Positions 4,116-46,683 of a stretch of 64,000 nucleotides of DNA are shown here, piece by piece (the first letter of the stretch is position 1; each line of letters begins with the position of its first letter). Under the pieces are notes generated by a model that had not been told where the DNA came from, ran no database searches, and saw only the letters and a program-made list of their open reading frames with translations. The stretch lies in the NCBI GenBank assembly GCA_964655915.1, contig CAZZNV010000004.1, positions 18,664 through 82,663 of the forward strand, in the 5' to 3' direction. Origin of the DNA: an uncultured Azospirillaceae bacterium (GTDB taxonomy: Bacteria; Pseudomonadota; Alphaproteobacteria; RF32; CAG-239). The position numbers and the translations under genes are program-made.

Positions 4116-4146
4116 AAAACACCGGAAAAGTCCGGTGTTTTTTTTG
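4116..4146 (+). terminator. Rho-independent terminator (AACACCGGA-AAAG-TCCGGTGTT plus T9)
   Basis: 9-bp stem and T-run immediately after the small ORF. Confidence 0.7.
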
Positions 4147-4189
4147 GGCGCAGAAATTGTGAAACTTTTTTTACAATAAGCTGATTTTG

Positions 4190-4218
4190 TTGACACATTA
4201 TAAAATGTAAGTTACAAT
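4190..4218 (+). promoter_or_regulatory. Sigma-70-type promoter TTGACA-N17-TACAAT for the Cys-rich protein gene
   Basis: Consensus -35 TTGACA (4190-4195), a 17-nt spacer, then TACAAT (4213-4218), about 50 nt upstream of the ATG at 4270. A near-identical promoter precedes the paralogue at 56557-56585. Confidence 0.6.
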
Positions 4219-4269
4219 GGAAATTGGGTTATAACTAAATTATATTTCGAAATAACAATGAGGTTTCCT

Positions 4270-6372
4270 ATGAAAAAATTATTGCTTGCGGTCAGCGCGT
4301 TGGCTACCGTTTGTATCTCTGAGGCGAGAGCCGAGGCAGATATTTATCAGGAGAACAATTTAGCGTCATTAACGATTAATCTGCCGGACATTCAGGGGCT
4401 TAGAGTTGCCGGGGTTCAATGGATGCCGGACTACTTTGGCAGTAATTTGACGCGTTCATCTTCATCAAACTTGGAAAAAACAGCGACCTGTGCGCAATAT
4501 AAATTGTATTCGGCGTCAGATTGCCCTGAGGGCAGGGAACCTTCTGATTTGAGGGAACCGAAACCCGGTTTGAGGTGTTATGCCCGATGTGTTTGTAGCA
4601 AAACAAAATACCCTTACACAATTGCTAACTGTGTTTTGCCTAATTCTGTTGGTGGTGATTATTGTTCTGATGCAAACTACACTCTTTCTAATGAGGGTAA
4701 AGTCTTAGCTTTTGCCGATGTTGTGTCGGTTCAAAATTCGTTTGCCCTTAACAATCCTAGTCTTGCCAGTAGTGTTGCATGGGCAGAGAATAAGGTTGTG
4801 GTTTCAGGTGGAACATCAGGAAACGGTAGCTCGCCATCGAGTACGGGGAGCGTGTATGTATCTGGGTTTAGTCCGACGGGGATGTCAGCATCTGTTTCTC
4901 AGAATATGACCAATCAATATGCTGTAACTATGGTAGATAAAGTTGATGTCTCTGGTGGTTCCACAGGAAACGATGGTTCATCATCGGGGACAGGGGGTGT
5001 TTATGCTTCAGGACTTGCAAGTGGTGTAACTGTAGCAGGACTCTCTTCTAACGTTGCTCATCAGAATCTATATCTATCGTCGGCGGCTGTGACATCTGTG
5101 CAAACATCGGGAGTTCATCAGACTTTAGAAGAGAATAATGTTCCCAAATCAGCCGCGTATCGCTATACCAAATGTTCGCAAACGGTGTTTTGTAGTACGT
5201 ATGGTTACACAACAAGTTCTACGGTAACCAACAAAACTTGTACTAAGGTTGCGCCGGAATCTGTCGGCAACTTAGATAATTGTTATAACTGTATGTGTAA
5301 ATCTGAGTTTAAGTATTCTGAAGAAGAATATAACAGACTGAGACAAGTTGCAGGTTGTATTAATGGTCGCGTTTCTTGTGAAGACAGCAACGGTCTGCAT
5401 TATAAAATAGTCCTTAATGATGGTTTCTTAAATGATTGTGCTTTTGCTCCCTGTGCAGAAGGCTATACTCCGGGGTTGGCAAAAGTTACTTGTAGCAGCG
5501 ATGGAGATAAGTATGAATCTCAAGGTTACCACGGTCCGTTAATATGCGGAAAATGTACGCATCGTGCTTGTCCACAGGGATATTCCGTAGATACCGCGAC
5601 TTGTCCGAGAGGGTATCAGCTTGAAACAAACAGCACGTCAGGTGGTAAAGCTTGTGGAAAGTGTGTGGTGGCACTGTGTCCGACAGGATATGATGTAAAT
5701 ACGACTTCTTGTTCAAATGGATATAAGTTAGAAACAAACGGATATTCGGCAAGTAAGCCTTGCGGAAAATGTACCGCAACGACATGTCCGACGGGATATA
5801 ATGTAAATACGACCTCTTGTTCAAATGGGTATAAGTTTGAAACAAGCGGATATTCAGCAGGTAAGGCTTGCGGAAAATGTACCGCAACGACATGTCCGAC
5901 GGGATATGATGTAAATACGACCTCTTGTTCAAATGGATATAAGTTTGAAACAAGCGGATATTCAGCAGGTAAGGCTTGCGGAAAGTGTGTACAGATGAGT
6001 TGTTCTGATGGCGGGTATGTGGATAGTTGTCCTAGCGGTTCATCGGGCACCTCCATTGTCTTTGGTGGAAAGACATGCTATAAAGATTGTAAAGCAACTA
6101 GTGGTAGTTCAAATCAGGGAAAGACCGGTGATTGTGGAGGTTGCGTAGCCTCGGGTATGAAGATCATGACGGTTAATGGTCAGCGGAAATGTTGTCCGAT
6201 GAATTATACACCATCTAGCAATAGTACCAGCAATAATGGTTTGGGAAATTTGGGGTCCAATCCAGAAGGTACCAAAGGTTCGTTGCTTGGTTCGATTGGT
6301 GGCAGTACTATCTCGCCAGCAGACCCATGTTATCATTGTGAGGCCAGCACAGCTTTAGATACTTTATATTGA
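4270..6372 (+). CDS. Secreted cysteine-rich tandem-repeat protein (paralogue 1). Signal peptide, a Ser/Gly/Thr-rich middle, then 4 x 36-aa Cys repeats and a Cys-rich C-terminal domain.
   Basis: Track ORF 4258..6372 trimmed to ATG 4270 (GAGG 7 nt upstream). Starts MKKLLLAVSALATVCISEARA|EA. Repeats read CPTGYDVNTTSCSNGYKLETNGYSASKPCGKCTATT. The C-terminal CGKCVQMSCSDGGYVDSCPSG...CYKDCK is homologous to the 54601..56523 protein. Confidence 0.8.
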   Translation: MKKLLLAVSALATVCISEARAEADIYQENNLASLTINLPDIQGLRVAGVQWMPDYFGSNLTRSSSSNLEKTATCAQYKLYSASDCPEGREPSDLREPKPGLRCYARCVCSKTKYPYTIANCVLPNSVGGDYCSDANYTLSNEGKVLAFADVVSVQNSFALNNPSLASSVAWAENKVVVSGGTSGNGSSPSSTGSVYVSGFSPTGMSASVSQNMTNQYAVTMVDKVDVSGGSTGNDGSSSGTGGVYASGLASGVTVAGLSSNVAHQNLYLSSAAVTSVQTSGVHQTLEENNVPKSAAYRYTKCSQTVFCSTYGYTTSSTVTNKTCTKVAPESVGNLDNCYNCMCKSEFKYSEEEYNRLRQVAGCINGRVSCEDSNGLHYKIVLNDGFLNDCAFAPCAEGYTPGLAKVTCSSDGDKYESQGYHGPLICGKCTHRACPQGYSVDTATCPRGYQLETNSTSGGKACGKCVVALCPTGYDVNTTSCSNGYKLETNGYSASKPCGKCTATTCPTGYNVNTTSCSNGYKFETSGYSAGKACGKCTATTCPTGYDVNTTSCSNGYKFETSGYSAGKACGKCVQMSCSDGGYVDSCPSGSSGTSIVFGGKTCYKDCKATSGSSNQGKTGDCGGCVASGMKIMTVNGQRKCCPMNYTPSSNSTSNNGLGNLGSNPEGTKGSLLGSIGGSTISPADPCYHCEASTALDTLY
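5569..6000 (+). repeat. Intragenic tandem repeat: 108-bp period, about 4 copies (3 near-identical)
   Basis: TGTCCGAC(A/G)GGATAT(G/A)ATGTAAATACGAC recurs at 5677, 5785 and 5893, with a diverged copy at 5569. The period of 108 bp equals 36 aa. Confidence 0.85.
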
Positions 6373-6390
6373 CCTAATCTAACCTAAACA

Positions 6391-6426
6391 AAAAAACCGC
6401 GGTGGATTTATCCGCGGTTTTTTTTG
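6391..6426 (+). terminator. Rho-independent terminator (AAACCGCGG-TGGATTTAT-CCGCGGTTT plus T-run)
   Basis: 9-bp stem plus T8. About 40 nt including the hairpin are near-identical (1 mismatch) to the element 3' of the paralogue at 54556-54592. Confidence 0.75.
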
Positions 6427-17073: not shown

Positions 17074-18093
17074 TTATTCAAAAAAAATGAAGTTTAGTAT
17101 ATTGAACATTAGTCTGTGCGGTTTTGAGATGACGGCATCATATTGTTTTAGCAGGCTGTTGTTGTAGAGTTTCTTTGCGCTGCGACAAGAGAAAAAACAA
17201 TAGTTGACACAACGTTTATGAAAATATTTTCCGCAGATGTTGTTGAACGTTTCCGTATCAAAGCAATTTGTTTGTGTGTTGGCGTTAATAAATATCAGCA
17301 GGAGTTCTTCAATCTGTTTGAGGATATTTTTTTCTTTTATTCTGGCGCGCCCACGGAACAAATAGTTGTCTGCGATTTCAAGTTGTTTGTCGTTTAATTT
17401 AATATTTAAACGCTCGTAAATAACATGGCGTAATTTGGTAGCTTCTTTTTGCACGATGCTTTTTTTTGTTTGGGAAACCATGTTTTTGTGTATGCGATAT
17501 TTAAGCAAAATTTCCGGTAAGTTGTGAAATTTTGTGTAGGGGCCGGCATCTATCCAAAGTTTTCGGTCATTAGAAGCTTGAAAAGTTTCATCATATGACA
17601 AATTGTGTTGTTGCAGCAATTCTTTGCGAATTAAGCTTGTTTGATGCGCCAGAGCGCACTTAAAAAGTAAATACGCCTTAATTGAAGCATCATCTTGCGG
17701 ATGAATAACCGTTTTGTGTTTTTTTCCAAAAGTTCTAAAACCTGTTCCACAAACGCCAATATCGGGATGAGCCTCCATATATTCGTATTGTTGTTGCAAG
17801 CGGTTAGGGAGCGCTATATCATCATGATCGTGTCGGGCGATATATTTGCCCTTGGCCAAAGAAATTCCGAGATTGGAAGAGGCTGAAATTCCCAGATTGC
17901 GTGTGTTTTTTATGTAACGTATTCTGGAATCCGTATAGCTTCTAACGATTTCGTCCGTGTTATCCGGCGAATTATCGTTGATGATGAGAAGCTCAAAGTC
18001 CTTAAATGTTTGTGCCAGCACAGAATCAATAGATTTGCGTATATGCGCAGCCCCTTTATATGTCGGCATCAAAACAGTAATTTTCGGACTCAT
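17074..18093 (-). CDS. Family-2 glycosyltransferase (rhamnosyltransferase-type), translationally coupled to rfbB
   Basis: Trimmed to MSPKITVLMPTYKGAAHIRKSIDSVLAQTFKDFELLIINDNSPD. The ATG lies 1 nt after the rfbB stop. Confidence 0.8.
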   Translation of the reverse strand: MSPKITVLMPTYKGAAHIRKSIDSVLAQTFKDFELLIINDNSPDNTDEIVRSYTDSRIRYIKNTRNLGISASSNLGISLAKGKYIARHDHDDIALPNRLQQQYEYMEAHPDIGVCGTGFRTFGKKHKTVIHPQDDASIKAYLLFKCALAHQTSLIRKELLQQHNLSYDETFQASNDRKLWIDAGPYTKFHNLPEILLKYRIHKNMVSQTKKSIVQKEATKLRHVIYERLNIKLNDKQLEIADNYLFRGRARIKEKNILKQIEELLLIFINANTQTNCFDTETFNNICGKYFHKRCVNYCFFSCRSAKKLYNNSLLKQYDAVISKPHRLMFNILNFIFFE

Positions 18094-18094
18094 T

Positions 18095-19147
18095 CTAAGC
18101 CGCTTTTTGCTTGATTTTTTGGATATACCAATCAACAGTCTGTATAATTCCGCTGGCGAAGTTTTCATCAGCTTTCCAGCCCAGCTTTGTTTCAAGCTTG
18201 GTGGCGTCTATGGCATAGCGCTTGTCGTGTCCGGGGCGGTCCTTAACAAAAACAATTTGCTTTTTATAAGACTGTTTATCGGCGCGGGGAAGTTCTTTAT
18301 CCAAGATGGTGCATATAGCATCAACGATTTCAAGGTTATTTTTTTCATTGCGACCACCGACGTTATAGGTTTCTCCGGTGATGCCTTTATGAAAAATGAG
18401 GTCAATGGCTTTGCAGTGATCCAAAACGTAGAGCCAATCGCGAATGTTTTTTCCATCACCATAAATTGGAATATCTTTTCCAGAGAGGGCATTGGAAATA
18501 ATTTTTGGTATGAGTTTTTCAGGATGTTGCTTCGGACCATAGTTGTTTGAACAATTGGATACCGTGCAATTTAATCCATACGTGTGAAAATAGGCGCGCA
18601 CCAACAAATCTGAACTGGCTTTAGATGCCGAGTATGGAGAGTTTGGGGCGTAAGGTGTGGTTTCTTCAAAGAAACCGGTTTCACCCAAGGTGCCATAAAC
18701 TTCATCTGTGGAAATATGGTGGAAACGCGCGTCTTCATATCCGGATTTGATTGTGTGTGGTGCAGACAGCCAGTAGTTTCTGGCAACATCTAACAGGGTA
18801 AATGTGCCCAAAATGTTGCTCTCGATAAAGGCTTTCGGTCCTGTGATGGAATTATCGACATGACTTTCGGCCGCAAAGTGAACCACTCCTTTAACATCAT
18901 AATCTTTGAATATTTTTTCAATGAGAGAACGGTCGCAGATGTCACCTTGTATGAAGGTGTAGTTTGCATTTTGTTCAACTTCTTTGAGATTGTCCGGATT
19001 TCCGGCATAAGTCAGCTTATCCAGGTTAATAATGTGGTAATCCGGATATTTGTTTGCAAAATAAGGTACAAAGTTGGAGCCTATAAAGCCGGCGCCACCG
19101 GTAACTAAGATAGATTTTTTAGACATGAACTTAAACTTTCCTTCCAA
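18095..19147 (-). CDS. rfbB: dTDP-glucose 4,6-dehydratase
   Basis: ILVTGGAGFIGSNFV...; SDR YxxxK motif. Confidence 0.95.
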   Translation of the reverse strand: MEGKFKFMSKKSILVTGGAGFIGSNFVPYFANKYPDYHIINLDKLTYAGNPDNLKEVEQNANYTFIQGDICDRSLIEKIFKDYDVKGVVHFAAESHVDNSITGPKAFIESNILGTFTLLDVARNYWLSAPHTIKSGYEDARFHHISTDEVYGTLGETGFFEETTPYAPNSPYSASKASSDLLVRAYFHTYGLNCTVSNCSNNYGPKQHPEKLIPKIISNALSGKDIPIYGDGKNIRDWLYVLDHCKAIDLIFHKGITGETYNVGGRNEKNNLEIVDAICTILDKELPRADKQSYKKQIVFVKDRPGHDKRYAIDATKLETKLGWKADENFASGIIQTVDWYIQKIKQKAA

Positions 19148-19932
19148 TGGTTAATGGATATTCCGAATAAATTTTTGATTTTGCTCTTATTCAGAACGGA
19201 GTAGTGCGGTCGCACTGCCGGAGTTGGGTAGTCTTTACTTTCTATCGGCAGAACTGTGCAAGAAAGGCCGGACTGTTGCATGATTTCGATGGCAAAATCA
19301 TACCAAGAACATACGCCCTCATTTGTAAACTGGACGAGCTCTTTCATTCCGGATTTTATTTGCGGTAAAATATCAACGATGGCCTGAGCCAAATCGGCGG
19401 CGTAAGTCGGTGTGCCGATTTGGTCAAAAACAACGTTCAGGTTTGGACGTTCAGCACCTAATCGGCGCATGGTTTTAACAAAATTGTTGCCATATTCGGA
19501 ATAAAGCCAAGCTGTGCGAATAATAACGGCGGCAGAGGCTTTTTCAAAAACCAACCGTTCACCTTCAAGTTTTGTTTTTCCGTAAACAGATACGGGGGAC
19601 GGGATGTCATCTTCCGTGTAGGGGCGAAAATTATGTCCGTTAAAAACATAATCCGTTGAAATATGAACGAGCGGAACGCCTGTTTCGGCCAGATTTGCGG
19701 GACCAACAGCGTTTATCTTGCGAGCCAGCTCTTCGTCGGTTTCAGCTTTATCGACCGCGGTATAAGCTGCGCAGTTGATGATAGCCGTAAAGTTTTTGTT
19801 GCGGCAAAATTCCAAAACAGCCTGTTTGTCGGTGATGTCCAGTTCATCGCGGTCAACATAAAAGGCCGCGTTCTGCAACAGCTTTCTCAAACAGTTGCCC
19901 AGTTGTCCGTTAGCTCCGGTTACCAAATACAT
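19105..19932 (-). CDS. rfbD: dTDP-4-dehydrorhamnose reductase
   Basis: MYLVTGANGQLG... Confidence 0.9.
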   Translation of the reverse strand: MYLVTGANGQLGNCLRKLLQNAAFYVDRDELDITDKQAVLEFCRNKNFTAIINCAAYTAVDKAETDEELARKINAVGPANLAETGVPLVHISTDYVFNGHNFRPYTEDDIPSPVSVYGKTKLEGERLVFEKASAAVIIRTAWLYSEYGNNFVKTMRRLGAERPNLNVVFDQIGTPTYAADLAQAIVDILPQIKSGMKELVQFTNEGVCSWYDFAIEIMQQSGLSCTVLPIESKDYPTPAVRPHYSVLNKSKIKNLFGISINHWKESLSSCLKNLS

Positions 19933-20468
19933 TGAACATCCTCCAAAAGCGGAAGCAATTTATCTTTATCTGATAAAATGGCTTTGCTCATGTCTATTTT
20001 CCAATCAATACCAAGCTTAGGGTCATCAAAGCGGATGCCGCCTTCAGAGGCTTTATTGTAGACATTGTCACATTTATAGGCGAAGGTGGCTCGTTCGCTC
20101 AAAACGGCAAAACCATGGGCAAAACGTCTGGGAATCATCAATTGACGATTGTTTTCTGCCGACAGTTCCACTGCAACATGTTTGCCGAAGGTCGGAGATT
20201 CAGGTCTTAGGTCAACAGCCACATCAAGAACGCAGCCTTCCAAAACGCGAACTAGCTTGGCTTGTGAAAATTCACCTTTTTGAAAATGAAGACCACGCAC
20301 AGTTCCGTAGACGGACTGAGACTGATTGTCTTGAATAAAATTATAGCTCAATCCCGCTTCTCTAAATTTGGCCTCATTGTAGCTTTCAAAGAAATAGCCT
20401 CGAGCATCTTTAAAAACTTGAGGTTCTATGATGAGAACATCTTTAATCGGTGTATCAATAATCTTCAT
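19920..20468 (-). CDS. rfbC: dTDP-4-dehydrorhamnose 3,5-epimerase
   Basis: Trimmed to MKIIDTPIKDVLIIEPQVFKDARGYFFESYN. Confidence 0.9.
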   Translation of the reverse strand: MKIIDTPIKDVLIIEPQVFKDARGYFFESYNEAKFREAGLSYNFIQDNQSQSVYGTVRGLHFQKGEFSQAKLVRVLEGCVLDVAVDLRPESPTFGKHVAVELSAENNRQLMIPRRFAHGFAVLSERATFAYKCDNVYNKASEGGIRFDDPKLGIDWKIDMSKAILSDKDKLLPLLEDVQCIW

Positions 20469-21339
20469 GATATTCCTCAAAAACTGTTTGCAAATATTTT
20501 TTATAGTCAATTCCGTCTTTTAGGGAATTGATTATTTCAGTCATGCGTTCATCACTGATGAAACCGCGGCGGTAGGCGATTTCTTCAATACAGGCGATTT
20601 TCAGGCCTTGCCGCATTTCAATGATTTCGATGAAGTTTGATGAATCGAGCAATGATTGCGGTGTTCCGGCATCGAGCCATGCGTTTCCTCGTTTCATAGT
20701 GACAACTTTAAGTCTGTTTTCCGCCAAATAAGCCTTGTTAATGTCTGTAATTTCTAATTCTCCGCGAGCAGAAGGCTTCAAGTTACGGGCTTTTTCAACA
20801 ACATCCGATTTATAAAAGTAAAGTCCGACGACGGCATAATTTGATTTGGGATTTTTGGGTTTTTCTTCAATCGATAGTACATTGTGTTGTTTGTCAAACT
20901 CAACAACACCAAACCTTTGCGGGTCAGAAACATGGTAACCGAAAACCGTGCCTCCGGGGTTGTTGGCAACTTCTTCACGGAAGCTTTTCAACTGGTCGCC
21001 CATGTAGAAAATATTATCACCCAAGATGAGGCACACTTCATCATTGCCGATGAAGTCGGCACCGAGAATAAAGGCTTCGGCAATTCCGCGCGGTTGTTCC
21101 TGAATTTTGTAACTGATATTAAGGCCCAGTCCCGAACCATCACCGAAAAAACACTCGATGTTGGGTGTATCTTCCGGAGTGGAAATTATCAAAATGTCCT
21201 TTATGCCAAAAAGCATGAGTGTGGACAAAGGGTAATATATCATAGGTTTATCATAAACAGGCAACAGCTGTTTACTGGTGGTTTTTGTGAGGGGATAAAG
21301 TCTTGTTCCGCTCCCTCCGGCAAGGATTATTCCTTTCAT
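20455..21339 (-). CDS. rfbA: Glucose-1-phosphate thymidylyltransferase
   Basis: MKGIILAGGSGTRLYPLT... Confidence 0.95.
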   Translation of the reverse strand: MKGIILAGGSGTRLYPLTKTTSKQLLPVYDKPMIYYPLSTLMLFGIKDILIISTPEDTPNIECFFGDGSGLGLNISYKIQEQPRGIAEAFILGADFIGNDEVCLILGDNIFYMGDQLKSFREEVANNPGGTVFGYHVSDPQRFGVVEFDKQHNVLSIEEKPKNPKSNYAVVGLYFYKSDVVEKARNLKPSARGELEITDINKAYLAENRLKVVTMKRGNAWLDAGTPQSLLDSSNFIEIIEMRQGLKIACIEEIAYRRGFISDERMTEIINSLKDGIDYKKYLQTVFEEYHEDY

Positions 21340-26412: not shown

Positions 26413-26565
26413 TTTTTTCTCCTTATTGATTTCTTATGCATACATATACCATGTATGGGTATGTGTCAAGCCATATTTTTATTTGCTTGTTGATATGTTG
26501 TAGCCCGTGCTTGACAAAAAACTGTTCGCAATAGCATGATTTTATGGTTGGAACGGAGTAATTTT

Positions 26566-28266
26566 ATGGTCAAAATTAGCATAGTGATGCCGGTATATAA
26601 TACCGAAAAATACTTGTCAGAAACGTTAGATGCTGTTTTAGCACAAACTTTTGCAGATTTTGAGGTTATATGTGTTGATGACGGAAGCACAGACGGTAGT
26701 TTAAGGATTCTTGAAGAGTATCGAGATAAAGATGAACGCATAAAAATTGTCGTTCAGGATAATCAGGGTGTTGTGGCGGCAAGGAACAATGCTATTGCTT
26801 TAGCAAAAGGGGAATTTATTTATCCGTTGGATAGTGATGATGTGATAGCCCCGAATTGTCTGGAAAGGTTGTATGAAGTTATCACTACGACGAATAATCG
26901 AGTTGTGGCCAGTGAGGCTTGTTGTTTTGGTGAATGGAACGGTAGCTTCAGGCAACCAAAATTTACAAAATATGAAATGTATGGTTGGCACGAGCAATGT
27001 GTTGTATCTGCCTTATTTTATAAAGAAGATTTTGAGCGTTTTGGCGGGTACCGTCTTGCTTTTAACGGGTTTGGCGGTGATGACATGGATTATTGGCTGA
27101 ATTACATGGATAATGGTATGCCAATGTTTCGTGTTAAAGACTGTTTGTTTTTTTACAGGCAGAAGCTACAACAAGAAAGTGTATGGAAAAATTATAGTAA
27201 AAGCGAGTTTAAGAAAAGATTTGATTATAAAGAATCAATGTTACGCAAATATCATCCTAAAATGAAAAAGTGGGTGTTGTTGTGGAAACTGGCTAAAATG
27301 CAGTCAATCCTTTTTCAGATAAAGAGAACTGAAAATAAAATGAGCATTAGGCTGTTGAAGCTAACCCTTTTCAAAGTTAAACGTGTAAAAGGCAAGAAGC
27401 TTTATTTACTGCTAGGATTTATTCCTGTTTGGCTGAAAAAAGTTTCATCTCTTTTTTGTTATTATTTTGATTCGGTTTTAAATTTTGGAGATTTGTTAAA
27501 TCAGGATTTATTCAATTTTTTTGGAAAAAATTGTATTCGCTCTGGTATATATGATGCTGACGTCATGGCTATCGGTTCATTGCTACAAACGTTATTTCAA
27601 GAAAAAAAGCTGTCATTAATTAAACGTTTCAGGTTGCATTCTAAAAAAGCGCTTATTGTGTTGGGGAGTGGTTTTATATCTGATATGCCAGTCAATTCGT
27701 ATGTCTTAAGAAGGTTAAATGTGAAAGCTGTCAGAGGGTATCATTCATTAAATAAATTGAAGCAATTTAGTAATGTTCATATAGCGTCTGATGTTGCTAT
27801 TGGGGACCCCGGTTTGTTATCTAAATATATTGTTGATGTTTCCAAAGTTGAAAAGAAATATGATTTGGGTATTATTCCTCATTATGTAGATAAAGATAAC
27901 CCATTGTTGAGAAAAATACAGGTTAAGAATTCTATTGTTATTGATGTTCAGCAAAAACCGGAAATGTTCTTACGTCAAGTTGCCGAATGTAGACATATAA
28001 TATCTAGTGCTATGCATGGGCTTGTTGCCGCAGATTCATTGGGAATACCGAATATTAGAATGGTTTTATCGGATAAGATTATTGGCGGTGATTATAAATA
28101 TAACGACTATTATTCTGCATTTGGTTTGAGCAAACATGCAGTTATTGATTTATCGAAGCGTGATTTTTCTGAAAAAGATATACCGGATATTGTCGGGAAT
28201 TACAAAATTAAGATACAACAGGTGGAACATATCTGTAGAGATTTGATAAAAGTCTTTCCACATTAA
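26566..28266 (+). CDS. Bifunctional GT2 glycosyltransferase (N-terminal) / polysaccharide pyruvyl transferase (CsaB/WcaK-like, C-terminal)
   Basis: Trimmed to MVKISIVMPVYNTEKYLSETLDAVLAQTFADFEVICVDDGSTDGS (GGAG RBS). C-terminal half has ...NFGDLLNQDLF... and ...SSAMHGLVAADSLGIPNI..., the pyruvyl-transferase motifs. Confidence 0.65.
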   Translation: MVKISIVMPVYNTEKYLSETLDAVLAQTFADFEVICVDDGSTDGSLRILEEYRDKDERIKIVVQDNQGVVAARNNAIALAKGEFIYPLDSDDVIAPNCLERLYEVITTTNNRVVASEACCFGEWNGSFRQPKFTKYEMYGWHEQCVVSALFYKEDFERFGGYRLAFNGFGGDDMDYWLNYMDNGMPMFRVKDCLFFYRQKLQQESVWKNYSKSEFKKRFDYKESMLRKYHPKMKKWVLLWKLAKMQSILFQIKRTENKMSIRLLKLTLFKVKRVKGKKLYLLLGFIPVWLKKVSSLFCYYFDSVLNFGDLLNQDLFNFFGKNCIRSGIYDADVMAIGSLLQTLFQEKKLSLIKRFRLHSKKALIVLGSGFISDMPVNSYVLRRLNVKAVRGYHSLNKLKQFSNVHIASDVAIGDPGLLSKYIVDVSKVEKKYDLGIIPHYVDKDNPLLRKIQVKNSIVIDVQQKPEMFLRQVAECRHIISSAMHGLVAADSLGIPNIRMVLSDKIIGGDYKYNDYYSAFGLSKHAVIDLSKRDFSEKDIPDIVGNYKIKIQQVEHICRDLIKVFPH

Positions 28267-28275
28267 GGTAAAAAA

Positions 28276-29214
28276 ATGAGCATAAAAGTTAGCATCATTG
28301 TTCCAGTCTATAATGTAGAGCCATATTTGAGTAAGTGTATGGAGTCATTGTGCAATCAATCTCTACAAGATATAGAAATTATTGCAATAAACGATTGTTC
28401 ACAAGATGATAGTTTGAAAATATTAAAAAGATATGCAAAACACGACAAAAGAATCAAAATAATAAATAAAAAGAAAAATGTTGGTACGGCTAACGCGCGC
28501 AATTCAGGTTGCTCTATAGCGACAGGTGAGTACATTGCTTTTATTGATGGTGACGACTATGTTGATAAAGATTTTTATGAAAAATTGTATAAACTAGCAG
28601 TAAAAAATAATGCAGATGTAGCAAAAGGTGTAACAAAAACATTTAACGTTGATGGTTCAGTTGTTATTGCAAAGGATAATGATGATATTGTGAAACAGGG
28701 AAAGTTTGCTTTTATGGGGCATCTTTTGACTGCAATATATAAAAATAATTTAATAAAAGAAAATAATATAAGGTTTTATATAGATTTTTTCTGTTTTCAG
28801 ATACAGGTTGTTTATTTTGCAAATAAAATCGTCTGCTTAAATGATACTTTTTATAACTATGTACGCCACATCGACAGTTGCGATAGCGATATTTTCACCC
28901 TAGAGAAATGGCAAAGATTGAATTTAGGGCATGGAAATTTTATGTATGATTGGATTATGAACCATAGCACGCCTTCAGATATTAAAATATTATATCTGGA
29001 TCGCATAAAGAGTTTATATTTTTATGGGTTCAATAAGTTGGAATTAATAGATGTTCCTTTGGCATGTCGTATACTAGCATCCACTATGAAGAAAAACTAT
29101 GATTGCGGTTTTAATATAGCCGATGATAAATCGTTTATACGCAAATTGTATAGGAAAAATAAAAATACAACGTTGTTTACATATATCATTGATGTTTTAA
29201 AAGGTAGAATATAA
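28276..29214 (+). CDS. Family-2 glycosyltransferase
   Basis: MSIKVSIIVPVYNVEPYLSKCMESL...AINDCSQDDS...FIDGDD. Very AT-rich. Confidence 0.8.
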   Translation: MSIKVSIIVPVYNVEPYLSKCMESLCNQSLQDIEIIAINDCSQDDSLKILKRYAKHDKRIKIINKKKNVGTANARNSGCSIATGEYIAFIDGDDYVDKDFYEKLYKLAVKNNADVAKGVTKTFNVDGSVVIAKDNDDIVKQGKFAFMGHLLTAIYKNNLIKENNIRFYIDFFCFQIQVVYFANKIVCLNDTFYNYVRHIDSCDSDIFTLEKWQRLNLGHGNFMYDWIMNHSTPSDIKILYLDRIKSLYFYGFNKLELIDVPLACRILASTMKKNYDCGFNIADDKSFIRKLYRKNKNTTLFTYIIDVLKGRI

Positions 29215-29215
29215 G

Positions 29216-30766
29216 ATGTTTAAGATAAAAAATACTGATAAAATATTAATTATTGCACCACATCCAGACGATGAGGCCCTTGGTTGTGGGGGATTTATGT
29301 TAAAATACGCAAAAAATATAGATAGTTTTTGTTTTTTATCTAGCGGTATATCTCCTGATGCAAAAGAGAAATCTGATATTCGTATTTTTGAATGGAATAC
29401 GGTACAAAAAGCTATTGGGTGTAACAATCTTGGGATTATAGAACTTTATGGTGACAGACCTTTGTTGCCAAGAATTATAGATAATATGCAAAAATATTTA
29501 AGGATTTTGAATACAAAAAAATATGATTATATTTTTATGCCTCACTTAAACGATAATCATCCTGAACATCAATATATTTCTAGAACAATAATGAGACAAA
29601 TTTTGTTACATAATGGCTATAAAAAAAAGCTTAAAATTTGTTTTTATGAAGTGTGGTCACTACTAAGTAGTCCTGATATTTATTTTGAAATAGATGCGGA
29701 TAAAAAAAGTAAGTTGTTGTCTTTATATAAGACACAATGGAATATTTGCAATCTTCCTAAGAAAATTATTGGTTTAAATTGTTATCGAGGTGTTGATGCT
29801 GGTTTTAAAGAATATGCAGAGGCATTTGAGGTAATCGGTATAGATGGTTATTTAACAAGTACAAAACCGATTGAAGAAATACTAGGGGGGGAAGAGAAAA
29901 AACTTGTATTATCAAATCGTTTATATCCAAACTTCATAAGTAACAGATTTGATTTACTATACGATGATTACGAATTATACGATTTAGGTACAGGTGTTGT
30001 TCCTGTAAAAATTGATGGTAAAGTGGCAAAGCTGGGAATGACACTGCAGATTTATTCTGATGAAACTTTACATAAATTTTATAATTTATTATTTGCAAAA
30101 CACCCATCTCTTGAAACAATAATAATAAAACATTCTTTATCGTCCTATGGAATAACTAGCAAAAATAATCAATTTTATCATTATCCGTACTGGCATATAG
30201 AACTTCCCGTAAGTGTAGAAGATTTTAGCAATAAATTATCAGCTCGTGTTCGTTATAATACAAAATGGTATCCGAAGAAAATTAGTGAGGATATTGGTGA
30301 TTTAAAAATTAGTCGAATTTCTGCTCAAGATACTACCGAAAGTATGGGTAAACAATTTTTTGCATGGAAAAAAGAAAGTCATAATTGTGATTATAATATG
30401 TCAACTAAAGAATACTTAAAAACATACGGCGTAACGGAAACCTATTTAATGTATATTGGTTCTGATTTGCTCGCAATTGGATTTATTTGTACAACAGGTG
30501 AAAATGTATATTTTGAGCAATTTGCTTATTCTCAAGAAGCAAAATATAAAAAGTATTCATTAGGGATGGTGCTTTATTATCACATAATATGTGATTTAAT
30601 AAGGTTAAAAAAGAAAAATTTCTATTTATCTGGTGGTTATTTAGATTATAAAAAAAGATATAATGGTGTATGTCAGTATACATATTCAGGGACAATTTCC
30701 AGAAAGAATAAACTTGAGCATAAACATCACTCATTTTGGTGGCATTTGAGGCATATGAAGTTTTAG
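29216..30766 (+). CDS. Fusion protein: N-terminal LmbE/PIG-L-family deacetylase plus C-terminal GNAT/FemAB-like acyltransferase fold
   Basis: N-terminus ILIIAPHPDDEALGCGGFML...HLNDNHPEH is the LmbE zinc-site motif. The C-terminal 250 aa resemble the BioF2/CelD-type GNAT fold. Very AT-rich. Confidence 0.55.
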   Translation: MFKIKNTDKILIIAPHPDDEALGCGGFMLKYAKNIDSFCFLSSGISPDAKEKSDIRIFEWNTVQKAIGCNNLGIIELYGDRPLLPRIIDNMQKYLRILNTKKYDYIFMPHLNDNHPEHQYISRTIMRQILLHNGYKKKLKICFYEVWSLLSSPDIYFEIDADKKSKLLSLYKTQWNICNLPKKIIGLNCYRGVDAGFKEYAEAFEVIGIDGYLTSTKPIEEILGGEEKKLVLSNRLYPNFISNRFDLLYDDYELYDLGTGVVPVKIDGKVAKLGMTLQIYSDETLHKFYNLLFAKHPSLETIIIKHSLSSYGITSKNNQFYHYPYWHIELPVSVEDFSNKLSARVRYNTKWYPKKISEDIGDLKISRISAQDTTESMGKQFFAWKKESHNCDYNMSTKEYLKTYGVTETYLMYIGSDLLAIGFICTTGENVYFEQFAYSQEAKYKKYSLGMVLYYHIICDLIRLKKKNFYLSGGYLDYKKRYNGVCQYTYSGTISRKNKLEHKHHSFWWHLRHMKF

Positions 30767-31773: not shown

Positions 31774-32487
31774 TTACAATCTTTTGATTACTCCGGCAGC
31801 GCGTCCGATAATAATGCATTCGTCAATAGTTCGTTCGTAGATGCTGTGTTTAGGATTGTCGGAAATAATTTTTAGGGTTGTTGGCTCTGAATTTGGAATG
31901 ATTTCTAAGCGCTTGATGGCGATGCCGACGCCGTCCCAAATTGCAAAAATTCCGGCGGGGGACGGGCGTTTGCCCTTGGGTGATGTGTCAATGATTACTT
32001 TGTCGCCGGAGGAAACTGTCGGGTACATGCTGTCTCCCAAAGCTTCAATAATATAAACGTTGCTGTTATTGACTTTGATTTCGTTAAGGTATTCAGACGG
32101 AATATTCCAAGTGTGGCGAATATTGTCTGTTTGTATGGTGTTGCCAAAATGATCGGTGGTGTTAAATATTCTGGCCTCTTCTGCGCATCCGCATCCGCCA
32201 TAGACATCGATTTCCGGAATTTTGTGAGTGTTGTCTTCAAGGGGGGGGAGCTCTGCATAACTTAAATTGTTTAATTTTATGTCAGTCAGTTCTTGTTCGT
32301 TAACATTTAGTATTTGGGATAGTTTTTTGCGATCAAGCTCACCTAATCTTACGGGGGATCCTGTTTTGATGTATTGTTGGATATAGGCTATTCCTTTGTG
32401 GAGAGATTTTGATACGCCGGCGTAGGTGAGACCGCGTTCGGTAATTAAACGATCTATTTTTTTGCGGATGCTTTCCGGTGTTTCCAT
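31774..32487 (-). CDS. Phage CI/LexA-type repressor: N-terminal HTH plus C-terminal S24 peptidase domain
   Basis: METPESIRKKIDRLITERGLTYAGVSKSL (HTH) ... IIEALGDSMYPTVSSGDKVIID ... IIGRAAGVIKRL (S24 Ser/Lys dyad context). Confidence 0.8.
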   Translation of the reverse strand: METPESIRKKIDRLITERGLTYAGVSKSLHKGIAYIQQYIKTGSPVRLGELDRKKLSQILNVNEQELTDIKLNNLSYAELPPLEDNTHKIPEIDVYGGCGCAEEARIFNTTDHFGNTIQTDNIRHTWNIPSEYLNEIKVNNSNVYIIEALGDSMYPTVSSGDKVIIDTSPKGKRPSPAGIFAIWDGVGIAIKRLEIIPNSEPTTLKIISDNPKHSIYERTIDECIIIGRAAGVIKRL

Positions 32488-32640
32488 GGTTTTCTCCTGA
32501 ATGATTTTTAAAATGTTTCGTACGATATGGACTATTATATATGAAAAAAACTATTTTGCAAATATGAAAATTCGTATTGACTTGAGTAATAATTTGATGT
32601 ACGAAATATCGTACGATGAATTAAGGAGGTGAATATGAAT
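32488..32640. promoter_or_regulatory. Divergent switch region: leftward repressor promoter (TATATAAT with a TCGTACGA half-palindrome at +1) and rightward operator/promoter copy B (TTGACT-N17-TACGAAATATCGTA)
   Basis: Copy B (about 32576-32613) matches copy A in sequence and spacing. It is followed by a 2-codon ATG-AAT-TAA mini-ORF, then AAGGAGGTG and the ATG at 32635. Confidence 0.5.
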
Positions 32641-33120
32641 TTGAGATATGAAGATTTTCAACCGCAAGACTGGCAAGAGAGGCATTCTCCCACTGAATCG
32701 GTGGTTGTAAAAGGGGATGGTGGCGAGGTTTTTGGGATTTGTCGCCGCAGAATCAAAGATTCCAGAATCTGGGATAAAGTTGAATATTGGCATTTGGAGC
32801 GCGAGGCAATACGAATCTGCAGAGCTTTCCACTTTATTACTTTCGGCAGAGGGTGTAGAACCTCGAAAATGACGGAAAGCTTTGAAAGAAGCGGATTGGA
32901 ATCGTTTTTAAGTGATTTGGATTTTTTGCACTATTTAATACGTTGTCGGAAAGATTATTTAAAGTGGGCGGAAGAATGCGGTCGCCAGGGGGTTAATCGT
33001 GCGGCAGTTGTGGATTTGCTTTATTTTAATATGACGATTGCGCAGGTCGAATCGAAATTTCATAAAAAACACGGTTGGGCAATTAAGAATTTGATTAAGG
33101 GGTTGCGTCTTTATATCTAA
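32635..33120 (+). CDS. Phage early protein (161 aa, Cys/His-containing, basic)
   Basis: Track ORF 32629..33120 (GTG) trimmed to ATG 32635, which sits 6 nt after AAGGAGGTG. No family recognised. Confidence 0.5.
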   Translation: MNLRYEDFQPQDWQERHSPTESVVVKGDGGEVFGICRRRIKDSRIWDKVEYWHLEREAIRICRAFHFITFGRGCRTSKMTESFERSGLESFLSDLDFLHYLIRCRKDYLKWAEECGRQGVNRAAVVDLLYFNMTIAQVESKFHKKHGWAIKNLIKGLRLYI

Positions 33121-33162
33121 TGTATTGAATATTATTTATATTTTCTATTTATCCACAGGCGC

Positions 33163-33191
33163 TTGACAAACGGGGATGATTAGGGTATATA
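33163..33191 (+). promoter_or_regulatory. Sigma-70-like promoter TTGACA-N17-TATATA in the 370-bp intergenic region
   Basis: Read by eye: GCTTGACAAACGGGGATGATTAGGGTATATATATTGG. Confidence 0.45.
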
Positions 33192-33489
33192 TATTGGCAT
33201 AATCGGAGTTTTTTGTCTTTGCGGGCAGAAAACTCTTTTTTTATCTCTTTGATTATGAACGGGGCAGGGTTCTTTTTTATGTCTTTGTAAGATGAGTTGG
33301 AACGGGTCTGATAAAGCTTTATGTTGGTGAGGAAGTGGTTTTGTTCATGAAGAGTGGGGTTGGTTGTAAATTTTAATTGATTGTACTCTTTTTTTTTGTA
33401 TTATTGTCTTACTATGTGAGTTTGAAAAATATCTTTAATCTGAATACCAAGATGTTCGCAGGGGTTTAATTGTAGAAAAGAGGGGTGGT

Positions 33490-33888
33490 ATGGTGGATAA
33501 CAAAACGGGGGAACCGGAAAGCTTGATCGGGTATTTAAACTGGTTGGCCAAATATGCGTTTGTTGGCGGTTGGTGGTTCTTTTTGATGATTGTTGCTTTG
33601 CACCTTTTTTATGATATGTATTTGTTGTTGACATCAAAGTTGATAATTTTGAAAGTCGTTATTTCTTTGTGGCTGGCCGGAACAACCTCTTGGGGTTATT
33701 CATTCTTTATGAAGAAAAAAAGTGTTTTTGATGAAGATGACTTGAAGAAAAAATGGAAGATTAACGGTTTGGCTTTGTTATATTGCATTTTAGTTTGGAG
33801 CAGTACGAATATTTTTAACGATATGGCTGATGATTACAAATTTAATGAATATGCCAAGTATTACGTGATACAAAGGTATAATAGTTAG
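33490..33888 (+). CDS. Phage membrane protein (3-4 TM helices)
   Basis: Hydrophobic segments WWFFLMIVALHLF... and LIILKVVISLWLAG. No family recognised. Confidence 0.45.
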   Translation: MVDNKTGEPESLIGYLNWLAKYAFVGGWWFFLMIVALHLFYDMYLLLTSKLIILKVVISLWLAGTTSWGYSFFMKKKSVFDEDDLKKKWKINGLALLYCILVWSSTNIFNDMADDYKFNEYAKYYVIQRYNS

Positions 33889-33916
33889 TAAGCTTATAGT
33901 TTAAGACGTTTTGTTT

Positions 33917-33950
33917 AGAGGGCTTCTTTTCGGAGAAGCCCTTTTTGTTT
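33917..33950 (+). terminator. Terminator (GGGCTTCT-TTTCGG-AGAAGCCC plus T-run)
   Basis: 8-bp stem. It overlaps the first 40 nt of track ORF 33911..34156, which argues that the real start is ATG 33965. Confidence 0.55.
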
Positions 33951-33964
33951 TGGAGAGAAGATGT

Positions 33965-34156
33965 ATGGAGATTGGTATAGAAAATATTATTGAAGAGCTT
34001 GAAGAGGCAAGGCAATTGGCAATGGAATCTAAATCTCCATCTGCGGCAATCACCGCCACGATGGGAAAAGCCAAGTTGCTGGGATTGTCTTTGGGCAAAA
34101 ATGGCGATGATGAAAATGAGGAAGCGCCTAAGGAGGTTCGGGTGAAGTTTATATAG
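33965..34156 (+). CDS. Small acidic phage protein (63 aa) immediately upstream of large terminase; possible small terminase subunit or DNA-binding accessory protein
   Basis: MEIGIENIIEELEEARQLAMESKSPSAAITATMGKAKLLGLSLGK... Position only. Confidence 0.35.
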   Translation: MEIGIENIIEELEEARQLAMESKSPSAAITATMGKAKLLGLSLGKNGDDENEEAPKEVRVKFI

Positions 34157-34165
34157 AGGGGAATT

Positions 34166-35518
34166 ATGGCAAAAAGGTTGAAAAAGGAGACAGCTGAGGC
34201 TGTGACTATTCCGATAGCACAGAAGTTTGCACCGTTGTTGAAGGAAAAGAAACGGATAAAATTTTATTATGGCGGACGTGCCGGTGGAAAATCATATGCT
34301 TTTGCGGATAGCTTGCTTTTGTTGGGGCGGCAGAAAAAAATTTTGGTGGCATGTTTGAGAGAAATTCAGGAGAGTATCAAGGATTCAGTGCATAAATTGT
34401 TGTCTGACAGAATAGCGTTGTTCGGGTTGTCAGATTATAAAGTTTATGAAACACGAATTGAAAATAAAATAACAGGGAGCAAATTTATTTTTAAGGGGTT
34501 GCGTGATCAAGATATTCAAAAAATAAAGTCTTTGGAAGGTGTGGACATAGCTTGGATAGAAGAAGCGCAAACAATAACAAAAAAATCCTGGTCTATTTTA
34601 GAGCCGACCATCAGAAAAGACGGCAGCGAGATTTGGATTTCCATGAACAGGGAAACCGAAACCGATGCTCTATGGCATCTGTTAGCCGAAAAACCCGATG
34701 AACGGACATTTGTTTGCAGGGTTAACTATGATGATAATCCGTTTTGTCCGGAGGAGATAAAAATTCAGGCGGAAAAGTGCAGAAAAGAAAGCCCTGAGGA
34801 TTATGCCCATATATGGTTGGGCGCTCCGGTGAGTCAGGCGGCTTGTCGGTTGATTGATGCGGCGGATATTCGTTCGGCTTTTGAAGAAAAGATAGATGAA
34901 TGCGGCAGTCCGTTGCTTATCGGGTTGGATATAGCTCGTTTCGGTGATGACAAAACATCTTTTTGTTTTCGGCGAGGGCGATTGTGTCAACGTTTTGAAA
35001 CATTCAGCAAGTTGGACAATGTAGAGGTGGCTGATAAAGCCGCCTTTTATATTAAACAATATCAGCCTAAACGTGTTTTTATGGATATTGGAGGGCAAGG
35101 TGCCGGCGTGTTTGATATTCTGAAAGACAGGGGGTTCGGTGAAGTGATACGCAGTGTTTGTTTTGGCGGAAAGGCCCGTGACAGCGAGCGTTTTATTAAT
35201 CGGCGAGCAGAGATGTGGGGAAATCTATGCGAGTGGCTTAAATCCAAACCGGAAGTTCAATTGCCTTATGATGAGGAGTTGTTTGAGGAGTTGGCGGCTG
35301 TTCAAAAAAAGTATGATAAATACGGGCGTTTGCAATTAGAGGATAAAGATGAATTAAAAAAACGTTTGGGGCGTTCACCCGATAAGGGAGACGCATTAGC
35401 CCTTACGTTTGCGGAACCCGTTTATGATGACGCTGTTCCGCGTTTGTACGGTAATGGAAAGGTTTCTGTGGAAGATATGTTTTTTGAAAATGAAAAAAGG
35501 AGAAGTAAAGAATGGTAA
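34166..35518 (+). CDS. Phage terminase large subunit
   Basis: Walker A YYYGGRAGGKSYAF; C-terminal nuclease-like acidic residues; 450 aa. Confidence 0.8.
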   Translation: MAKRLKKETAEAVTIPIAQKFAPLLKEKKRIKFYYGGRAGGKSYAFADSLLLLGRQKKILVACLREIQESIKDSVHKLLSDRIALFGLSDYKVYETRIENKITGSKFIFKGLRDQDIQKIKSLEGVDIAWIEEAQTITKKSWSILEPTIRKDGSEIWISMNRETETDALWHLLAEKPDERTFVCRVNYDDNPFCPEEIKIQAEKCRKESPEDYAHIWLGAPVSQAACRLIDAADIRSAFEEKIDECGSPLLIGLDIARFGDDKTSFCFRRGRLCQRFETFSKLDNVEVADKAAFYIKQYQPKRVFMDIGGQGAGVFDILKDRGFGEVIRSVCFGGKARDSERFINRRAEMWGNLCEWLKSKPEVQLPYDEELFEELAAVQKKYDKYGRLQLEDKDELKKRLGRSPDKGDALALTFAEPVYDDAVPRLYGNGKVSVEDMFFENEKRRSKEW

Positions 35519-35769
35519 AATGCAGGGCTGTGGGGGATAGAGTGTTTATTCGTTTGGAGGTTGAGGATAAAATATCTCAAGGGGGAATTATTATGCCTGA
35601 TTGTGTGGTTAATGAGCAAAACAGCGGTGTGGTCGAAAGTGTGGGAGAGAAGGTAACTTTGGTTAAAAAAGGCGACAAAGTTCTTTTTCATATATTTGAT
35701 GATTTGCCGGCTCCCGATGATGATATGGTTGTGGTTAGGGAAAACAGCATACTCGGTGTGTGGGAATAA
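35512..35769 (+). CDS. Phage-encoded GroES-like co-chaperonin (85 aa)
   Basis: VGDRVFIRLEVEDKISQGGIIMPDCVVNEQNSGVVESVGEKV...KKGDKVLF parallels GroES (L.DRV.V...E.....GGI.LP......G.V.AVG.G...V..GD.V.F). Overlaps the terminase stop by 7 nt. Confidence 0.6.
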   Translation: MVKCRAVGDRVFIRLEVEDKISQGGIIMPDCVVNEQNSGVVESVGEKVTLVKKGDKVLFHIFDDLPAPDDDMVVVRENSILGVWE

Positions 35770-35814
35770 TTTGAGTTTTAAGAGCTTTGAAGCGCTTTTT
35801 TATGGAGAAAACGA

Positions 35815-37644: not shown

Positions 37645-37690
37645 TTTGGCTTTGAGAAATCAAAGCCTTTTTTATATCTGAAAACCGGAG

Positions 37691-37930
37691 GTGAGTATGA
37701 CGAATTTTAGCCGTGAATGGATTGAAGAGATTGTTTTGCCGGATGGAACGACAGCGACTTCCGCTGCGGACGTTGATCGTTATATGCGGCAAAACGGGGT
37801 GGTGTTGGCTAGTGATTATTCCAAAGATTATTACCGCACCGTGAGATGGAAGAAACAGCAGCGGGAAAAGGACGAAGCGTTTAAATGTTTTGTAGAAGCT
37901 TATAAAAGGAGTGTTTGGTGTAATGACTGA
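37691..37930 (+). CDS. Phage hypothetical protein (79 aa)
   Basis: SD-like GGAGGTGAG upstream; overlaps the next gene by 20 nt. Confidence 0.4.
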   Translation: MSMTNFSREWIEEIVLPDGTTATSAADVDRYMRQNGVVLASDYSKDYYRTVRWKKQQREKDEAFKCFVEAYKRSVWCND

Positions 37931-38735: not shown

Positions 38736-38764
38736 GGTTTTAAATTGTTTGTTTTTTGATGAGG

Positions 38765-38792
38765 GGACTCCGTTGGATAACGGAGTTTTTTT
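38765..38792 (+). terminator. Terminator (ACTCCGTT-GGAT-AACGGAGT plus T7)
   Basis: 8-bp stem. Confidence 0.65.
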
Positions 38793-38816
38793 ATAATTTG
38801 TTGAGAAGGAAATAAA

Positions 38817-39791: not shown

Positions 39792-39804
39792 TTTTGAAAT
39801 AAAA

Positions 39805-39841
39805 GAAAAAATGGGCAGCCAATTATTTGGCTGCCTTTTTT
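39805..39841 (+). terminator. Terminator (GGGCAGCCAA-TTATT-TGGCTGCC plus T6)
   Basis: 9-bp stem. Confidence 0.7.
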
Positions 39842-39855
39842 AGAAAGGGAAAATA

Positions 39856-43739: not shown

Positions 43740-43749
43740 GAGAAAAATT

Positions 43750-44547: not shown

Positions 44548-44549
44548 GC

Positions 44550-44903: not shown

Positions 44904-44906
44904 GCT

Positions 44907-45761: not shown

Positions 45762-45764
45762 TGT

Positions 45765-46637: not shown

Positions 46638-46651
46638 ATTCTTACGGTTAA

Positions 46652-46678
46652 ACAAGGGAGGAAAACCTCCCTTTTTTT
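46652..46678 (+). terminator. Terminator (AAGGGAGG-AAAAC-CTCCCTT plus T7)
   Basis: 8-bp stem. Confidence 0.65.
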
Positions 46679-46683
46679 AGGAG

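Follow-up and report, generated by a model that had tools for sequence, protein, structure and literature searches.

What kind of protein is encoded by the repeat-rich gene at positions 4190–6426 of a 64,000-nucleotide (nt) stretch of contig CAZZNV010000004.1, and where does that protein act? The stretch, which was analysed over its full length and is called the window here, comes from an uncultured Azospirillaceae bacterium. The original prediction had described the gene product (protein 1) and a second protein encoded in the window (protein 2) as a pair of secreted, cysteine-rich repeat proteins outside any known family. Both open reading frames (ORFs) occur at the positions given there, with lengths of 700 and 640 amino acids (aa), respectively. 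We estimate the probability at about 0.55 that protein 1 belongs to an undescribed multigene family, restricted to one lineage, whose exported, recombining and disulfide-stapled members most likely function at the cell surface or outside the cell.

The cysteine-rich parts of both proteins include two types of repeat module, A and B, which we defined by iterated hidden Markov model (HMM) searches on collected relatives. The A unit consists of 33 residues and a linker of 3–4 residues, with the consensus C-P-x-G-Y-s-T-s-x-T-S-C-x-x-G-Y-x-L-x-T-N-G-Y-S-G-x-x-a-C-G-K-C (spacing CPxGY..10..C..16..CGKC). The 36-aa repeats previously noted are real, but each carries four invariant cysteines (in 45 diverse copies) rather than 4–6. 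The B unit spans ~31–37 residues and follows the pattern K-[TS]-C-x-[DE]-Y-x-x-x-Y-...-C-...-G-x-T-C-Y-K-D-C. Five A and two B units occur in protein 1, and one A and five B units in protein 2. When the A and B HMMs were run against the six-frame translation of the window, only the genes for these two proteins were matched. The two proteins also have a common N-terminal plan, in which a signal peptide is followed by a motif-bearing linker (VQ-WMPDY in protein 1, SH-FLPDY in protein 2), a B unit and a CxC..Y.Y..C..GG..C module.

Protein 1 (4270–6372, + strand, 700 aa plus stop by ORF call, and identical to database protein P0001) begins with a Sec-type signal peptide (aa 1–21, 4270–4332, +), composed of MKK, LLLAVSALATVCI and SEARA, then E. 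It has the n/h/c layout and an A-x-A signal peptidase I site, with cleavage read from the sequence between MKKLLLAVSALATVCISEARA and EA. The N-terminal linker (aa 22–72, 4333–4485, +) includes AGVQ-WMPDY, with WMPDY at aa 51–55 (nt 4420–4434). The N-terminal cysteine-rich domain that follows (4486–4665, +) is common to protein 2 and comprises the first B unit (aa 73–107, 23.6 bits) and the CxC...Y.Y...C...GG..C module (aa 108–132). Peculiar to protein 1 is a cysteine-free spacer rich in Ser, Val, Gly and Thr (aa 133–301, 4666–5172, +). As originally described, this low-complexity segment contains a duplication: between aa 150 and 295, where S, V and G make up 21%, 15% and 12% of residues, VSGG[TS][ST]GN...VY[VA]SG recurs at an offset of 49 aa. 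The middle cysteine-rich region (aa 302–390, 5173–5439, +) has 10 cysteines and, in the HMM scan, one degenerate B-like unit (6 bits); it shows significant similarity to nothing else, the N-terminal domain included. The five A units (aa 395–430, 434–466, 470–502, 506–538 and 542–574; 5440–5997, +) score 36.8–57.6 bits each. They are followed by the second B unit (aa 577–607, 5998–6090, +; SCSDGGYVDSCPSG...GGKTCYKDC, 36.5 bits), which belongs to the segment that aligns with protein 2, and by a C-terminal region (aa 608–700, 6091–6369, +) with CGGC..CCP, a Gly/Ser/Asn-rich loop and a terminal CYHC+10, a pattern common to the paralogue P0004 only. Protein 1 has 47 cysteines (6.7%), 46 of them after the signal peptide, and eight CXXC motifs. 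Apart from the signal peptides, no hydrophobic segment was found in either protein (top 19-residue hydropathy 1.05 in protein 1 and 0.79 in protein 2). We rejected a lipoprotein assignment because there is no lipobox ([LVI][ASTVI][GAS]C), the signal-peptide cysteine being preceded by A-T-V in protein 1 and V-V-V in protein 2. The sequence DVNTT in A units 3 and 5 (5689–5703 and 5905–5919) fits the N-glycosylation sequon D/E-x-N-x-S/T, probably by chance, since it is not conserved in homologues and no oligosaccharyltransferase was seen in the window.

At the DNA level, the A units correspond to a 108-nt tandem repeat with four copies at 5569–6000 (+), detected by Tandem Repeats Finder and a repeat finder, the last three copies lying at 5677–6000. 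It was the sole tandem repeat that Tandem Repeats Finder reported in the gene. Pairwise identities among the three youngest units amount to 91.7%, 88.9% and 84.3%, with 60–66% to the next unit; the earlier figure of 96–98% was thus too high for whole units, measured at 84–92%. The core alone of units 4 and 5 approaches 97% DNA identity, and the longest exact run is 47 nt. Two antisense ORFs within the tandem repeat (5486–5953, −, 155 aa, and 5616–6056, −, 146 aa) are themselves repetitive and are almost certainly by-products of the repeat, not genes.

Protein 2 (54601–56523, −, by ORF call) is organized as a signal peptide, SHFLPDY, a B unit with the CxC module, a cysteine-rich middle, one A unit (aa 296–328, nt 55540–55638), four B units (aa 330–472, nt 55108–55536) and a cysteine-poor C-terminal region (aa 473–640). 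Its signal peptide, also read from the sequence, has an A-x-A site with cleavage between MLKLLVVVCSAVAAYSANA and K. Both proteins carry Sec-type signals; cleavable signal peptides had been proposed for them originally. FLPDY is encoded at nt 56359–56373. There are 51 cysteines (8.0%), 50 of them after the signal peptide, three CXXC motifs, and a DNA repeat of two 111-nt copies (55212–55433) that are 76% identical. BLASTP aligns proteins 1 and 2 in two segments, the first 137 aa at 34% identity (E 8e-12) and a 120-aa stretch at 45% identity (E 4e-18) that spans the junction CGKCVQ(M/K)SCS(D/E)GGYV...CY..C. The second segment had been taken for a C-terminal region that aligns between the two proteins; it does align, but it is the junction at which a B unit follows the final A unit.

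The genes of proteins 1 and 2 are also alike in their flanking expression signals, and in the case of protein 1 the interval 4190–6426 is a single complete transcription unit with a monocistronic gene. Upstream is a near-consensus sigma-70-type promoter (TTGACA-17-TACAAT, 4190–4218, +) that agrees with the consensus at 11 of 12 positions, and a ribosome-binding site (GAGG, 4260–4263, +) lies 6 nt 5' of the ATG at 4270, in a context (AAATGAGGT) that also occurs at the paralogue. An alternative ATG at 4258 would give a protein of 704 aa; the start at 4270 is preferred because of the position of GAGG. Downstream, an intrinsic terminator (6390–6425, +) consists of an A-run, a CCGCGG stem, a 9-nt loop, CCGCGG and a T-run, and has a twin behind the paralogue. 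Judged from these signals, the gene looks real and expressed. The protein 2 promoter (TTGACA-17-TACAAT, 56557–56585, −) is identical to that of protein 1 at 25 of 29 bases, and the common 29-nt element reads TTGACAC[A/G]TT..AAAATGTA..TTACAAT. The common terminator, AACCGCGGTG[G/A]ATTTATCCGCGGTT, lies at 54562–54586 (−) behind protein 2 and is the same element as 6395–6419 (+). In the 64-kb window, the promoter pattern TTGACACRTTNNAAAATGTARRTTACAAT has two sites, one at each family gene, the terminator pattern AACCGCGGTGRATTTATCCGCGGTT matches only the two positions just given, and the ribosome-binding-site context occurs exactly twice, with 0 expected in each case. Fixed ends with a variable interior are the pattern expected when members of a co-regulated family exchange segments. 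When metagenome contigs were scanned for the terminator common to both genes, no match was obtained. In the relatives P0002 and P0008 (L012 and L015), the ~60–130 nt upstream contain repeated GCCACA[AT]TT motifs (TTGCCACATT...); these resemble the TTGACACATT that the window genes have at their −35 and may represent a family-specific promoter or operator.

The description of a pair holds as far as homology is concerned, but the family on this contig is larger, with at least four paralogues. Two of them, P0004 (673 aa) and P0188 (670 aa, with eight B units), are encoded outside the window. P0004 is 57% identical overall to protein 2, and its first 35 aa are identical to those of protein 1. The identity between protein 2 and P0004 is distributed in blocks, reaching 97–100% at aa 86–145 and 265–324 and falling to 57–87% in adjoining blocks, and the C-termini are unrelated. 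A similar pattern is found between protein 2 and P0105, which is from another assembly: identity is ~100% at aa 1–90 and 209–298 and 30–43% at aa 358–477, and the sequences are unrelated beyond this. Uniform divergence cannot leave a run of 60 identical residues in two proteins with 57% overall identity. The blockwise pattern bears the marks of gene conversion or an exchange of segments, apparently both within and between genomes. The number of cysteines in the mature part is even in all four paralogues, a count limited to these four and resting on manual assignment of the cleavage sites; a family-wide tally (83 even, 48 odd) was not used because the automatic cleavage heuristic cut too early.

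Variation in unit number was seen in an orthologue cluster (≥90% identity) of P0002 from a related species; of the protein 1 gene, the databases contain one copy. Members of this cluster have 5, 6 or 7 A units and differ by exact multiples of 36 residues, and one member carries another module in an additional copy; such steps fit unequal exchange, and the counts derive from short-read assemblies, which can collapse repeats. The original prediction had likened the locus to contingency loci. In the strict sense this comparison is not supported, as neither the promoter nor the 5' coding region contains a homopolymer or other short-sequence repeat (tracts there are ≤6), and classical contingency switching is therefore not indicated.

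Searches for known families returned no meaningful match, in agreement with the original prediction. This was the case for Pfam (whole proteins 1 and 2 at E ≤ 1, six segments at E ≤ 10), in which no SLH or S-layer domain was found in either protein, and for NCBIfam at E ≤ 1, where a single spurious match was obtained and neither a Myxococcus nor any other cysteine-rich repeat family appeared. Sequence searches of the Protein Data Bank (PDB) with the single proteins and three profiles gave nothing below E 0.29, and no structural match in the PDB was found for the protein 2 model. Only 3 of 47 long family members scanned have a Pfam match of any kind, and we found no description of the family in the literature, motif strings included. 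In an AlphaFold model of aa 391–612 of protein 1, each A unit forms a loop and then a long two-stranded beta-hairpin with strands of 8–9 residues. The mean predicted local distance difference test (pLDDT) score is 90.3, obtained with an alignment of 26 multi-unit segments that consists partly of register-shifted repeats and may inflate the confidence. This fold also bears on the suggestion of a knottin-like protein. An inhibitor cystine knot has six cysteines and three knotted disulfides within 30–50 aa, and was rejected here because the 36-aa unit has four cysteines and its model shows a plain hairpin of two strands.

How widely the family occurs was assessed with the A-unit profile in an exhaustive HMMER search of 1.84 billion cluster representatives. 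The unit proved rare: at E ≤ 1e-3 the profile matched 157 clusters, and at E ≤ 1e-10 it matched 70. A genome scan found ten loci, of which eight are titled as uncultured Alphaproteobacteria metagenome-assembled genomes (MAGs; HGM16787/16788, UMGS241, UBA2903 and others); several of the Alphaproteobacteria MAGs that carry the family are from the human gut. The other two loci are in a single bin titled Limosilactobacillus gorillae, which is probably mis-binned or mis-named, so that with the exception of this bin the family is narrow and restricted to one lineage, a point for which the original prediction had asked for a search. Database labels of relatives include one 'Acetobacter sp.' MAG and one gut metagenome, and gut metagenomes are the main origin of the relatives. 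No family members were matched in phage and plasmid collections, and in five contexts the family genes are solitary, surrounded by housekeeping genes and without secretion genes in the neighbourhood. The exact sequences of both window proteins are in a public protein collection as singleton entries from one NCBI contig of 117,484 bp. The housekeeping proteins of the window are also database singletons at 90% identity, and the species therefore appears to be rarely sampled. The window encodes FlgH, which indicates a diderm envelope, and FlaF, which fits an alphaproteobacterium.

Evidence that bears directly on location comes from relatives with a recognizable secretion domain. In P0043, P0053, P0070, P0080 and P0166, an Autotransporter beta-domain (PF03797) scores above the Pfam cut-off and the A units are N-terminal to it, in the passenger. 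These passengers contain many A units, and the proteins have 4–7% cysteine overall. The A unit is therefore a module used outside the outer membrane, and for this reason a surface or extracellular site is the most likely one for protein 1. This association makes the surface role suggested originally plausible, and the sequence features are those of an exported protein. Autotransporter passengers are normally cysteine-poor beta-helices, and large disulfide loops block their translocation (PMC9769942). Near the mature N-terminus, the motif [FWY][LM]PDY occurs in 46 of 208 fetched family proteins. A broader form, x-I-[YC]-[WF]-L-P-D-[Y], is present in 76 of the 208 (46 of the LPDY form and 30 of the CFLP form), often immediately after the signal-peptidase site. 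The corresponding linker of protein 2 is modelled as disordered (pLDDT 30–39). One speculation is that this motif serves in sorting or anchoring, as a signal of a new type.

From these observations we propose the following model. The protein 1 gene would be transcribed alone, from its strong sigma-70-type promoter to its own terminator, and the product would be exported via Sec, with cleavage of the predicted signal peptide. Outside the cytoplasm, the cysteine-rich modules would fold as long beta-hairpins, and the four invariant cysteines of each would staple it, most likely through two disulfides. Five successive A units could thereby form a stiff, protease-resistant rod, and the cysteine-free Ser/Gly/Thr/Val segment could act as a flexible spacer that connects the N-terminal cysteine-rich domain to the rod. 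The most likely destination of protein 1 would be the cell surface or the medium, where it could serve as a coat, a spacer or an adhesive. Unit number could shift by unequal exchange between near-identical 108-nt units, and paralogues could swap whole blocks by gene conversion, aided by the conserved promoter, ribosome-binding site and signal-peptide ends and the conserved terminator ends.

Several observations weigh against this model. The fold confidence may be inflated, as noted above, and in the full-length protein 2 model confidence is confined to aa 200–470, the cysteine-rich modules, the N- and C-terminal parts being poor. The changes in unit number depend on short-read assemblies, no Dsb gene was found in the 64-kb window, and for proteins 1 and 2 we found no membrane anchor, beta-barrel or sorting signal and no secretion gene dedicated to them. 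Because of this last point, protein 1 could instead be a periplasmic or envelope protein, or line the outer membrane on its inner side, where it would stiffen the envelope, possibly through intermolecular disulfides, like the chlamydial cysteine-rich envelope proteins. The presence of a signal peptide combined with the lack of an outer-membrane translocation device or anchor is what such a protein would have, and the several abundant-looking paralogues with strong promoters are in keeping with a structural role of this type. On the other hand, the even cysteine counts of the four mature paralogues suggest internal pairing, the A unit is found outside the cell in autotransporter passengers, mosaic diversification more typically affects exposed proteins, and the Pfam families of chlamydial outer-membrane proteins were not matched. 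We therefore consider a periplasmic location possible but unlikely.

The cysteines themselves could have a different purpose if the four in each unit (C..C..CxxC) held zinc or another metal, making the repeats metal-stabilised hairpins or a metal store. Four cysteines per unit with a CxxC would suit such a site, the host is apparently a gut bacterium with no Dsb system seen in the window, and the sole, non-significant PDB profile match (E 0.29) was an A20-type zinc finger. In the model, however, CGKC is within the second beta-strand rather than in a knuckle turn, which places its two cysteines on opposite faces, an arrangement better suited to two separate disulfides than to a zinc knuckle. 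The A unit also has no conserved His or Asp co-ligands, and no zinc-finger family matched segments of protein 1 or 2 even at E up to 10. Cys4 zinc sites are, moreover, uncommon in Sec-exported proteins, and metal binding appears improbable. Quite improbable, in our assessment, is a host-directed effector or receptor mimic whose repeats imitate the cysteine-rich domains of TNFR- or ephrin-receptor-like proteins and bind a host ligand. This idea derives from the weak top Foldseek matches, which include OX40, GITR and Argos (E 0.9–2), and from the family member P0131 (864 aa), in which the LPDY module at the N-terminus, one A unit and B units are accompanied by eight canonical repeats of Ephrin_rec_like (PF07699; best E 5.6e-30), a mainly eukaryotic domain. 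The structural matches are all non-significant, however, and membership of Ephrin_rec_like was rejected because proteins 1 and 2 have no PF07699 match and hhalign gave a probability of 16% for the A unit against the PF07699 repeats of P0131. Finally, the genes could be mis-assembled repeat-rich ORFs or decaying pseudogenes, given that the source is probably a metagenome-assembled contig, that assembly can collapse repeats, and that the database entries for housekeeping proteins of this genome are likewise singletons. We regard such an artefact as very improbable, since the ORFs are long and intact and have a promoter, ribosome-binding site and terminator, the A-unit cysteines are invariant across ~150 clusters and the fold is predicted with confidence; it is the antisense ORFs at 5486–5953 and 5616–6056 that are spurious.

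The reading of protein 1 as an exported, most likely surface-exposed member of a recombining family can be extended, tentatively and with considerable doubt, to a bacterial counterpart of the variant-surface-protein systems of protozoa. Such a system would consist of recombination-diversified, protease-resistant and disulfide-stapled coat proteins with a new hairpin-repeat fold, and their genes would be interchangeable expression cassettes in which the promoter/signal-peptide end and the terminator end are conserved. They might be routed to the surface via x-I-[YC]-[WF]-L-P-D-Y by a new route, and in relatives the modules would pass through autotransporters despite the rule of cysteine-poor passengers. 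These Alphaproteobacteria are uncultured and known from metagenomes only, and the family would offer a first handle on what their surfaces present to host, phage and proteases. Its two repeat modules, and probably a fold along with them, lie outside all protein-family libraries and solved structures, and the presence of cysteine-rich modules in autotransporter passengers challenges the view that passengers have to be cysteine-poor. Exchange of blocks within a genome, combined with conserved expression cassettes, is known in antigenically variable pathogens and is undescribed for this lineage, and the conserved N-terminal motif may mark an undescribed step of sorting or anchoring.

The remainder of the window has its own surface-related and mobile features. 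Upstream of the protein 1 gene, a 70-codon ORF has its own hairpin and T-run (~4118–4147). Downstream, flagellar rod genes begin at 6544; they start behind the terminator, which places the protein 1 gene outside the flagellar operon. A tie to these neighbours was rejected, given the gene's own promoter and terminator and the Sec signal on its product. Genes rmlABCD with a glycosyltransferase (GT2) occur at 17074–21339, and a low-GC island (26536–30766, GC 0.30–0.37), for which the low GC suggests horizontal acquisition, encodes glycosyltransferases, a pyruvyl transferase and a PIG-L/GNAT protein. These two regions are probably a surface-polysaccharide locus. A prophage-like block (~31774–47438) includes genes for an S24 (CI-like) repressor, large terminase, SU10-adaptor-like, tail-collar and ALK/LTK glycine-rich-domain proteins and a phage lysozyme, and many ORFs without a Pfam match. 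MoxR, DUF58 and TPR genes are located upstream of protein 2, and a FadL-type porin is encoded at 59.8 kb.

Several known systems resemble this family in part. The Mycoplasma Vlp/Vsp proteins are paralogues with conserved promoter and signal-peptide ends and variable repetitive interiors, and they vary in size by repeat gain or loss. Their hosts lack a cell wall, the proteins are lipoproteins, and switching relies on promoter poly-A tracts or site-specific inversion, whereas the family genes described here have no lipobox, no tract of the poly-A type and no invertible element. The Ephrin_rec_like (GCC2_GCC3, PF07699), TNFR and furin-like proteins have short disulfide-rich repeats, with C-P-x-G-[TY]-[YF], that form elongated rods of small beta-hairpins, much as proposed for the A units. 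Type Va autotransporter adhesins vary in repeat number, as the family may, and relatives of protein 1 carry A units before a PF03797 beta-domain. This 12-stranded domain is absent from proteins 1 and 2, and known passengers are cysteine-poor beta-helices (PMC9769942), whereas the family consists of cysteine-rich hairpin arrays.

The nearest functional analogy, one without homology, appears to be the coat that Giardia forms from variant-specific surface proteins (VSPs). These are eukaryotic rather than bacterial proteins with 10–13% cysteine, compared with 7–8% here, and Pfam searches of proteins 1 and 2 detected no sequence or profile similarity to them. VSPs are defined by a single C-terminal transmembrane domain followed by a CRGKA tail (bioRxiv 10.1101/2022.03.07.483299), and proteins 1 and 2 have no C-terminal transmembrane domain, CRGKA or GGCY. 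VSPs withstand gut proteases (PMC6341118; bioRxiv 10.1101/2022.03.07.483299), as the stapled rods proposed here might. The likeness, drawn also with related high-cysteine proteins, lies in the overall arrangement, since both are multigene families, here of an apparent gut organism as in Giardia, that encode a signal peptide and a cysteine-rich part with CXXC motifs, vary in length and are flanked by conserved expression signals.

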